A stretch of 12,211 nucleotides of DNA from a virus. Taxonomy: Duplodnaviria > Heunggongvirae > Uroviricota > Caudoviricetes. This document shows, one piece after another, positions 3,001 through 6,000 of the stretch. Each line of letters begins with the position of its first letter. Positions within the stretch are counted from its first letter, which is position 1. The position numbers were made by a program. Where the stretch lies: the IMG/VR virus record IMGVR_UViG_2541047429_000046; one strand, 5' to 3'.

Positions 3001-6000
3001 TTAACGGAAGTTCATCTGCTTTATGGGCAAGAGCTTTAGCCAGAATTTCTTTGTCGTAATCGAGATTAAAGAACCAGCCACCGCCATTAAGCAGCCAGTG
3101 ATTGACGTTTCCACGCTCTGATAAGCCATCAATCATCATTTGCTCATGGTTTCCACGTACAGCTCTGAACCAGGGGAATGTGATTAATTCCAGGCATTCT
3201 ACGTTCTCTGTACCGCGATCAACCAAATCGCCCACCGAGATAAGCAGGTCTTTTTTGGTGTCGAATCCTATCGTCTCCAGTTTTTTCATCAGGTTCGTGT
3301 AGCATCCGTGCAGATCGCCAACTACCCAAATATTTCGGTATTTGCTGCCATCAATTCTTTCGTAGATATTCATGCAACCTCACTTCTGCTGTTTCGCAGT
3401 TTTTTAAGTTTCTGTTGATACTCCGCCTTGATGGCCCTGCACTCTTCGACAGTCCAGCGATAGCGGTTATGGTTTGATTCGATTTCCTCTACTGCTTCCT
3501 GCCCGATGCGGCTAATCAGTTCGACGCGATACGGAACGAGATTTCCGCTTTTGTGCTGGTTGCACACCACGCATTGCTTGTGAATATTGCGTTCATCAAA
3601 TCGGAGTTGAGGTGCCGCAGCAGTTGTCCGGTAATGTCCGGCATCCCACTGAGCAGACGTGAGCGTTCCGCACGAGATACATGGTAAGTCGCGGTCTCTT
3701 TCTCTGATGAAGGCGTGTACGGCTTGTTGGGCTTGTTTAATCCAGTAACTGCGGGGCTTTAAGGCGAGTTTTTGAATCTTAAGTTTATCTTTCTGTTTCT
3801 GCTCCTCTCGTCGTCGTTTCTTCTCTGCTGCCTTTTCTGCCTTTTCCGCTTTTTCGCGTTCTTTGCTTCGTCGTTCGAGTGCTATCTTGGTTCCACACTC
3901 TGGAGAGCACCACCACTGATTAGCGAATGCAGGGTGAAACCATTCCCGACATTCATCGTTTTTACATCGTCTTCGCGCTGGTTTAGCCATCATCTTTTTC
4001 CTCGTGCATCGAGCTATTCGAATCGCTCATCAGCTCTGCGCAGCAGTGCTCACACACGTGAACTTCCAGCACATGCAGCTTCTGACCGCAGTTAGCGCAC
4101 GTTAAAGCCCGCTCGACGCTTTCTTGTTCGTAACTTCGATTTTGGTCAATCACCTTGTTTTCCTCGCACAATGTCTTAGCCACCGGATATCCCACAGGTG
4201 AGCCGTGTAGTTGAAGGTTTTTACGTCAGATTCTTTTGGGATTGGCTTGCGTTTATTTCTGGAGCGTTTCGTTGGAAGGTATTTGCAGTTTTCGCAGATG
4301 ATGTCGGTGAAACTTCGTCGCTGTCGTCTCATGCCGCCCTGTCTCCCCATCGCGCTTTCATGCCAGCGATGCGCAGTTCATCGCATTGTTGATCGTCGCC
4401 AACCAGTACGGCCTTAATCCGTGGACGAAAGAAATTTACGCCTTCCCTGATAAGCAGAACGGCATCGTTCCGGTGGTGGGCGTTGATGGCTGGTCCCGCA
4501 TCATCAATGAAAACCAGCAGTTTGATGGCATGGACTTTGAGCAGGACAATGAATCCTGCACATGCCGGATTTACCGCAAGGACCGTAATCATCCGATCTG
4601 CGTTACCGAGTGGATGGATGAATGCCGCCGCGAACCATTCAAAACCCGCGAAGGCAGAGAAATCACGGGGCCGTGGCAGTCGCATCCCAAACGGATGTTA
4701 CGTCATAAAGCCATGATTCAGTGTGCCCGTCTCGCCTTCGGATTTGCTGGTATCTATGACAAGGATGAAGCCGAGCGCATTGTCGAAAATACCGCATACA
4801 CTGCAGAACGTCAGCCGGAACGCGACATCACTCCGGTTAACGATGAAACCATGCAGGAAATTAACACTCTGCTGATCGCCCTGGATAAAACATGGGATGA
4901 CGACTTATTGCCGCTCTGTTCCCAGATATTTCGCCGCGACATTCGTGCATCGTCAGAACTGACACAGGCCGAAGCAGTAAAAGCTCTTGGATTCCTGAAA
5001 CAAAAAGCCACTGAACAGAAGGTGGCAGCATGACACCGGACATTATCCTGCAGCGTACTGGGATCGACGTGAGAGCTGTCGAACAGGGAGATGATGCGTG
5101 GCACAAATTACGGCTCGGCGTCATCACAGCTTCAGAAATTCACAACGTAATAGCAAAACCCCGATCAGGAAAGAAGTGGCCTGACATGAAAATGTCCTAC
5201 TTCCACACCCTGCTGGCTGAGGTTTGCACCGGTGTGGCTCCGGAAGTTAATGCTAAGGCTCTGGCCTGGGGAAAACAGTACGAGAACGACGCCAGAACCC
5301 TGTTTGAGTTCACTTCCGGCGTGAATGTTACTGAATCCCCGATCATCTATCGCGACGAAAGTATGCGCACCGCCTGCTCTCCCGATGGTTTATGCAGTGA
5401 CGGCAACGGCCTTGAGCTGAAATGCCCGTTTACCTCCCGGGATTTCATGAAGTTCCGGCTCGGTGGTTTCGAGGCCATAAAATCGGCTTACATGGCCCAG
5501 GTGCAGTACAGCATGTGGGTGACACGAAAAGATGCCTGGTACTTTGCCAACTATGACCCGCGCATGAAGCGTGAAGGCCTGCATTATGTCGTGATTGAGC
5601 GGAATGAAAAGTACATGGCAAGTTTTGACGAGATGGTGCCGGAGTTCATCGAAAAAATGGACGAGGCACTGGCTGAAATTGGTTTTGTATATGGGGAGCA
5701 ATGGTAATGAAGCATCCTCACGATAATATCCGGGTAGGCACGATCACTTTCGTCTACTCCGTTACAAAGCGAGGCTGGGTATTTCCCGGCCTTTCTGTTA
5801 TCCGAAATCCACTGAAAGCACAGCGGCTGGCTGAAGAGATAAATAATAAACGAGGGGCTGTATGCACAAAGCATCTCCTGTTGAATTAAGAACGAGTATC
5901 GGGATGGCACATAGCCTCGCTCAAATTGGAGTCAGGTTTGTGCCAATACCAGTAGAAACAGACGAAGAATTTCATACGTTAGCCACATCCCTTTCACAAA

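Follow-up and report, generated by a model that had tools for sequence, protein, structure and literature searches.

The 12,211-nucleotide (nt) stretch analysed here, IMG/VR record IMGVR_UViG_2541047429_000046 (hereafter the window), contains between positions 4359 and 4360 a junction that is almost certainly the fixed scar of one deletion, which took place in the prophage state in the lambda-like prophage Sp3 (CP-933K) of the Escherichia coli O157:H7 lineage. The gene order of the window is that of reverse-complemented lambda, from Q back through the nin genes and then bet, exo, xis and int, with nothing between ninE and bet. Beyond the junction, the right arm carries mostly the alleles of a second O157:H7 prophage, Sp15 (VT1-Sakai, CP-933V).

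Position and distribution of the junction

We placed the breakpoints by a three-way alignment of the window with references for the ninB side and for the bet side. On the right, phage lambda (L002), VT1-Sakai and two O157-type prophages of the Shiga toxin 1 (Stx1) group (L003 and L005) match the window from position 4360 and none of them earlier; this position is nt 113 of bet, the second base of codon 38, at lambda coordinate 32698. On the left, the prophage of strain WCHEC4533 (L004), in which ninB and ninE are intact and ninB lies directly upstream of ninE, matches through 4359 and diverges at 4360. Apart from this single gap, from ninB nt 410 to bet nt 113, the window is collinear with reverse-complemented lambda, and the DNA missing in lambda coordinates is 32699-41053, that is 8,355 bp. 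The junction (4359-4360) is blunt, with 0 bp of shared homology, since the parental sequences have no base in common at this point.

An earlier note on this DNA had described ninE (minus strand) and a 5'-truncated bet (plus strand) as lying back to back about 30 bp apart. We observed that the two genes are indeed head to head, 27 bp apart, and alignment with lambda, the check that the note had proposed, places the breakpoint to the base. The note had also described the junction as a fusion of the region upstream of ninE to the middle of bet; the fusion holds, although the left breakpoint lies inside ninB and not in upstream intergenic DNA. The part of bet that is lost had been put at about 45 codons, whereas the alignment gives 112 nt, i.e. 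37 codons plus 1 nt, the figure of 45 stemming from the first in-frame start, a TTG at 4386. Short homology at the junction, which the note had proposed to look for, was not found. The deletion itself stood up: in the phage collection no record is collinear across the junction, and bet has lost its start codon with its first 112 nt.

The 27-bp spacer is part of the last 31 nt of ninB (4329-4359, minus strand), which form the left edge of the deletion. They comprise nine codons (KARWGDRAA), the stop codon and 1 nt, are identical to lambda 41054-41084 at 29 of 31 positions, and overlap by the ninB stop codon the ATG of ninE. The whole of 4340-4380 is explained by ninB and bet, with no bases derived from an insertion sequence (IS). 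On the other side, the bet pseudogene (4360-5033, plus strand) was delimited by homology to the bet genes of lambda, Sp15 and VT1-Sakai, and carries the label "missing N-terminus" in the annotation by the Prokaryotic Genome Annotation Pipeline (PGAP). Its product covers positions 28-195 of the 198 of the Pfam RecT profile (PF03837), positions 1-27 being absent. A functional Bet, a single-strand annealing protein of this family, requires a complete coding sequence (CDS), and here the start codon and the N-terminal region are lacking.

To follow the junction in other genomes, we used as a probe the 50-mer 4335-4384, neither half of which is able to seed a match alone. It was found with 100% identity, exactly once each, in 295 of 5,426 complete E. 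coli genomes, including those of Sakai and EDL933. Because these genomes are independent, the junction is neither a chance combination nor an artefact. The named strains in the sample of matches are O157:H7. At the three loci that we examined in their entirety, those of TR01, JEONG-1266 and Sakai, the junction lies in a lambda-like prophage adjoining ybhC, at the lambda attachment site. In Sakai, the locus is labelled "prophage Sp3, lambda-like phage" and bet is the pseudogene ECs_0810; elsewhere PGAP describes bet as "incomplete; missing N-terminus". Sp3/CP-933K, integrated at lambda attB between ybhC and ybhB/bioA, thus has the same bet pseudogene as the window and a junction identical to the base.

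These observations also bear on the idea that nothing was deleted, ninE and bet being adjacent because two modules of a mosaic lambdoid phage naturally meet there, or because the immunity region has moved elsewhere in the element. Lambdoid phages are mosaic and this very region varies, as ninC, ninD and ninH are absent and two different Q genes are present. However, both boundary genes are broken inside their coding sequences, bet being without a start codon and ninB reduced to nine codons, and the ninE/bet adjacency occurs in no phage record. Moreover, the Sp3 of Sakai contains no cI, cro, N, O or P anywhere, and Sp3 was inert in experiments (PMC2669165). We therefore consider the absence of a deletion to be extremely improbable.

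The deletion would have taken place in the prophage state, since without O, P and ori the phage would have been unable to propagate. The short repeats around the junction, direct or inverted, were at chance level only. From the lack of homology at the join, we infer that it was made by a homology-independent (illegitimate) event and not by RecA, Red or repeat slippage.

The deletion and the defectiveness of Sp3 are already known, having been published in 2009 and annotated in RefSeq. Asadulghani et al. reported that Sp3 has no repressor (CI/Cro), anti-repressor or replication (O/P) functions, that its Red system is disrupted, and that in experiments it did not undergo circularization, replication or packaging (PMC2669165). 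What is added here is the detail at base level, namely ninB nt 410 joined to bet nt 113 without microhomology, with 8,355 bp missing in lambda coordinates.

Genes lost and possible origin of the deletion

The interval missing from the window contains, in lambda as well as in L003 and L005 (Sp15 type), gam, kil, cIII, N, pL/oL, cI, pR/oR, cro, cII, O with ori, P and ren; ea10, ral, sieB and rexAB are further genes of this interval in lambda. The nutL/nutR sites, most of ninB and the first 112 nt of bet were removed as well, i.e. the promoter-proximal parts of both genes. When we searched the window by listing its open reading frames (ORFs) and by Pfam scans, none of the genes of this interval was found, and gam, kil, cIII, N, cI, cro, cII, O, P and ren are likewise absent from the whole 38.6-kb Sp3 of strain Sakai. 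An inducible lambdoid prophage carries an immunity region (cI, cro, oL/oR and N) and a replication region (O, P and ori), and both are lacking in the window and in the Sp3 of Sakai.

The claim of the earlier note that these modules are absent and that the prophage can neither regulate nor replicate itself is therefore supported by the alignment, by the gene content of the Sakai Sp3 and by published experiments (PMC2669165). The note had also stated that the early-left genes lost their native promoter while remaining intact ORFs. This is correct in that pL, nutL and N are gone and that exo (225 amino acids, aa) and the ORFs downstream of it are intact; it does not apply to a native Sp3 arm, as the segment from exo to int is of the Sp15 type.

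According to standard lambda biology, the absence of cI would leave the element with no immunity, no repressor and no SOS switch, and the absence of O, P and ori would prevent its replication. With pR and N gone, the nin genes and Q would not be driven and the late genes would remain silent; similarly, with pL and N gone, bet, exo, xis and int would not be driven. A consensus scan, which is weak evidence, gave 0 promoter-like sites in 3900-5300 and, over 1-7000, about as many as expected by chance. The element would be trapped in the chromosome with its cargo genes, lpxR in the window and nleB2, nleC, nleH1 and nleD further along Sp3; in Sakai, the cargo of Sp3 is lpxR, nleB2-1, nleC, nleH1-1 and nleD. 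That Sp3/CP-933K cannot be induced and stays permanently fixed in O157:H7, carrying lpxR, nleB2, nleC, nleH1 and nleD, is explained by the deletion.

Comparable elements exist in E. coli K-12, where DLP12, Rac and Qin are cryptic lambdoid prophages immobilised by internal deletions of regulatory or replication genes while some of their genes remain intact. They differ from Sp3 as elements, in their sites and in their breakpoints, and Sp3 retains a nearly full late region together with virulence cargo.

Several points weigh against our reading of the window. The direct, undeleted ancestor of Sp3 was not found, and intact relatives served as references (WCHEC4533 on the nin side, lambda and Sp15 on the bet side); how much DNA was lost, and exactly what it contained, is deduced from these relatives. 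The mechanism of joining is deduced solely from the lack of homology, and the silence of the flanking genes is a prediction for which the consensus promoter scan is weak evidence. Finally, the combination of Sp3 and Sp15 sequences described below occurs in no other assembly, so that for this part of the reading an assembly error has to be reckoned with.

A more specific mechanism, which does not deny the deletion, would involve IS629: a copy inserted in bet at about nt 112 would have been excised in a manner dependent on its transposase and on the IS-excision enhancer (IEE), taking with it the adjacent 8-9 kb and leaving a scar free of homology, one base from where the IS had ended. The suggestion comes from a DLP12-like prophage at the argU/sfm site of GCA_053454775.1 (L006), found through a look-up of the 215-aa Bet ORF that otherwise returned mostly Sp3 loci. 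In this prophage, an IS1203 occupies 6664-7975. On the right the IS adjoins bet nt 112 directly, one base away from where Sp3 is broken, and on the left it lies against a truncated ybcN-like gene in the nin region upstream of ninE, with no target duplication. A prophage other than Sp3 has here lost the same immunity and replication region, in association with an IS.

L006 and Sp3 have in common that the DNA between the nin region and bet is lost and that the breakpoint of L006 in bet, at nt 112, is 1 nt from that of Sp3. They differ in that L006 still has the IS at the junction and has a ybcN-like gene instead of ninB on its left flank; its bet-exo arm is 97.7% identical to that of Sp3, and it is therefore not simply an Sp3 copy. 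The ORF look-up could have returned L006 only with a breakpoint inside a span of roughly 85 nt, and the coincidence within 1 nt is therefore worth no more than p 0.03-0.04 by our own estimate.

The blunt Sp3 junction, without microhomology, agrees with such an origin. IS629 is abundant and active in O157, and one copy lies in the window. The iee gene presumably lies on SpLE1 in O157, outside the window. According to two reports, both citing Kusumoto 2011, IEE-dependent excision of IS629 gives rise to adjacent deletions whose length ranges from a few nt to over 40 kb (PMC9943667; bioRxiv 10.1101/2023.06.07.543989). Against this origin, however, the Sp3 junction shows no IS end, IS remnant or target duplication, the breakpoints of L006 and Sp3 are 1 nt apart and not identical, and an intermediate with an IS at the Sp3 junction was not found. 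The IS-bet junction of L006 has no single-piece copy in the complete E. coli genomes and was found in no viral, GTDB-representative or Joint Genome Institute (JGI) metagenome contig. The support for IS629 thus amounts to one coincidence. The IS1203 beside bet nt 112 in L006 hints weakly at an IS629-related origin of the deletion, which we regard on the whole as unlikely. If this origin were true, it is the excision of an IS that would have converted a live phage into the element that now carries, fixed in O157:H7, lpxR and four effector genes of the nle group.

We also observed, in the IMG/VR record IMGVR_UViG_2718217715_000011 (L017), an otherwise ordinary Sp3 with an extra IS1203/IS629 (9111-10420) in exo, at the equivalent of window position 5212. 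This insertion further indicates that IS629 is still active in this arm of the prophage.

Sp3 and Sp15 alleles in the window

We compared the window with copies of both prophages. With the Sp3 of TR01 (L001) there are 0 mismatches over window positions 1-4558, which comprise the left arm Q, lpxR, phosphatase, ninG, ninF, ninE, the ninB remnant and the beginning of truncated bet, and then 76 mismatches over 4559-6675. Only 3 mismatches separate the window from the Stx1-type prophage of FRIK804 over 4360-12211, and likewise 3 from VT1-Sakai over 4360-5900, in both cases at 4508, 5251 and 5302. From 4559, the window has the Sp15 allele at 76 of the 79 discriminating sites. Beyond 6675 only Sp15-type sequence matches, including the insertion of IS1203 in xisR (xisR::IS1203) and the integrase that adjoins mlrA. 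The switch from Sp3 to Sp15 alleles, where a crossover is presumed, thus falls in 4509-4558, as site 4508 has the Sp3 allele and Sp15 alleles begin at 4559.

At sites 4508, 5251 and 5302, the window has the Sp3 allele, whereas all the O157 Sp15 arms checked (FRIK804, strain 124 and VT1-Sakai) have another base. These three isolated Sp3 alleles could reflect patchy heteroduplex repair, or cross-mapping between the paralogues during polishing.

A canonical Sp3 continues to the right with genes of its own and a lambda-type integrase, followed by ybhC. The window lacks this integrase next to ybhC and instead carries Sp15 alleles from 4559, with a right arm nearly identical to that of Sp15 from exo to int. 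With Sp15/VT1-Sakai/CP-933V, integrated at mlrA (yehV), positions 4360-12211 are 99.9% identical, xisR::IS1203 included. Upstream of this arm, Sp15 differs in having a complete bet, gam, kil, cIII, N, cI, cro, cII, O, P and ren, whereas the window has the Sp3 junction. Judging from these alleles, it is most simply supposed that the Sp3 junction and left arm were joined to a Sp15 right arm by a later homologous crossover within bet, about 150-200 bp past the junction.

Sp3 and Sp15 are inverted relative to each other and lie about 2.1 Mb apart (in FRIK2455, at 0.92 Mb on the minus strand and 3.06 Mb on the plus strand). Because of this orientation, a single crossover would invert the segment between them, while a double crossover would replace the left part of Sp15. 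JEONG-1266, in which the junction is at 3.02 Mb, was considered as a product of such an inversion and was rejected, since it has an ordinary Sp3 adjoining ybhC and a different numbering origin.

The hybrid combination is absent from the 5,426 complete E. coli genomes, IMG/VR, the GTDB-representative genomes and the JGI metagenomes. The junction pattern gave two matches in IMG/VR, both of the ordinary Sp3 type and not hybrid, and a look-up of the ORF formed by the fusion of xis' to the IS returned one 3.2-kb contig only, with no hybrid. The 215-aa truncated Bet ORF was discarded as a marker of the hybrid, the protein being identical in Sp3 and in the window.

This absence from the complete genomes and from three other collections would be explained if the hybrid were an artefact of assembly or polishing, the source strain having a separate, ordinary Sp3 and Sp15; the deletion junction would be real all the same. 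Sp3 and Sp15 have a common stretch of 2.3 kb that is about 96.5% identical, and the scattered Sp3 alleles at 4508, 5251 and 5302 in the Sp15 arm form a pattern like that of reads mis-mapped in polishing. On the other hand, the window contains a complete 1.3-kb IS629 between unique flanks, where short-read assemblies normally fail (the L016 contig breaks inside the IS). The assembly behind it was therefore probably finished or made from long reads, and a 2.3-kb repeat would be no obstacle to it, so that the hybrid is more likely to be real. In O157:H7, large rearrangements through recombination between prophages are well documented (PMC8743559 and PMC7430833), and with Sp3 and Sp15 inverted a single crossover would yield a viable inversion. 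We thus consider an artefact to be somewhat unlikely, without dismissing it. In any case, hybrid or not, the element in the window is without immunity and replication modules.

Crossover between homologous stretches of two inverted prophages is a known route to chimeric prophages in O157:H7, and the structure of the window fits one product of such an event. Iguchi and colleagues are said to have described in 2006 large chromosomal rearrangements bounded by prophages in O157:H7. Large prophage-bounded inversions and rearrangements are well documented in more recent reports (Stanton 2020, PMC7430833; Fitzgerald 2021, PMC8743559), and the latter gives 1.4 Mb as the largest inversion reported in O157:H7. 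The case considered here differs in that the relevant passages of PMC7430833 and PMC8743559 do not mention an exchange between Sp3 and Sp15, and in its span of about 2.1 Mb, found in none of the complete genomes searched.

If the crossover were true, it would imply either that about 2.1 Mb, including the replication terminus, was inverted or that a large replacement took place at mlrA. Such an inversion would exceed the 1.4-Mb record, and a deletion scar would have been transplanted to the site of the Stx1 prophage. The hybrid, if real, would be another case of genome restructuring mediated by prophages, with a scar movable between prophage sites, and could affect typing schemes based on the occupancy of mlrA/yehV. 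Judged jointly, the proposal that either an IS629 footprint at bet nt 112 lies behind the Sp3 scar or the Sp3/Sp15 crossover is real was rated as doubtful.

Other genes of the window

The left arm, of the Sp3 type, begins with a late antiterminator gene Q of the PF06323 type (373-1062, minus strand; Pfam Phage_antiter_Q, E=1.7e-91), to which the PGAP CDS at 4474-5163 of the TR01 locus maps. It is followed by the cargo gene lpxR for the lipid A 3'-O-deacylase (1537-2496, plus strand; Pfam LpxR, E=6.8e-40), which is ECs_0814 in the Sp3 of Sakai. A 5' fragment of a lambda-type Q of about 71 nt (2640-2711, minus strand), called "antitermination protein, missing C-terminus" by PGAP, is stranded between lpxR and the phosphatase gene; the homology to lambda stops 71 nt into Q, and the complete Q at 373-1062 is a different one. 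The fragment is apparently a second, older replacement scar, at the place where the segment containing lpxR came in.

The nin genes follow on the minus strand: a Ser/Thr phosphatase gene (NinI/PphA; 2708-3373; Pfam Metallophos, E=4.5e-17), 96.6% identical to lambda ninI, then ninG (3370-3990; Pfam NinG, E=3.1e-87) and ninF (3983-4153; Pfam NinF), both also annotated by PGAP. The complete ninE encodes 60 aa (4150-4332, with its start at 4332; Pfam NinE positions 1-58 of 58, E=7.5e-42; PGAP). We observed that ninG and the phosphatase gene overlap at 3369-3373, the ninH that lies between them in lambda (43040-43246) being missing, and that ninC and ninD are absent between ninB and ninE, as they are in the WCHEC4533 prophage. 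The absence of ninC, ninD and ninH looks like natural mosaic variation and not damage.

On the plus strand, the Sp15-type arm continues after bet with the intact exo ORF (5030-5707; Pfam YqaJ, E=3.4e-30), 99.9% identical to the Stx1-prophage arms of O157:H7. Next come early-left accessory genes (5707-9470), with DUF1317, DUF1382, TraR/DksA, Ea22-like, DUF551 and DUF4222 genes and the 5' part of xisR; they are 99.9% identical to L003 and L005, from which the PGAP annotation was transferred.

The IS1203/IS629 within the excisionase gene xisR (9471-10780, minus strand; 1310 bp) is complete, with terminal repeats TGAACCGCCCCGG, and is flanked by GTAG. The identical xisR::IS1203 insertion was seen in four complete O157:H7 genomes only, those of FRIK804, F7349, F7508 and AR-0429, and it probably blocks excision of this arm.

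The arm ends with an integrase gene of the mlrA/yehV-site type (10925-12211, plus strand; 428 aa; Pfam Arm-DNA-bind_2 and Phage_integrase), 100% identical to that of L003, which adjoins mlrA there. The window starts downstream of Q and ends at the integrase stop, and the expected host neighbour mlrA and the position of stx are both outside it. Its last bases (12209-12211) are the stop codon of the integrase gene, which suggests that the window was cut at a gene or provirus boundary and not at random.

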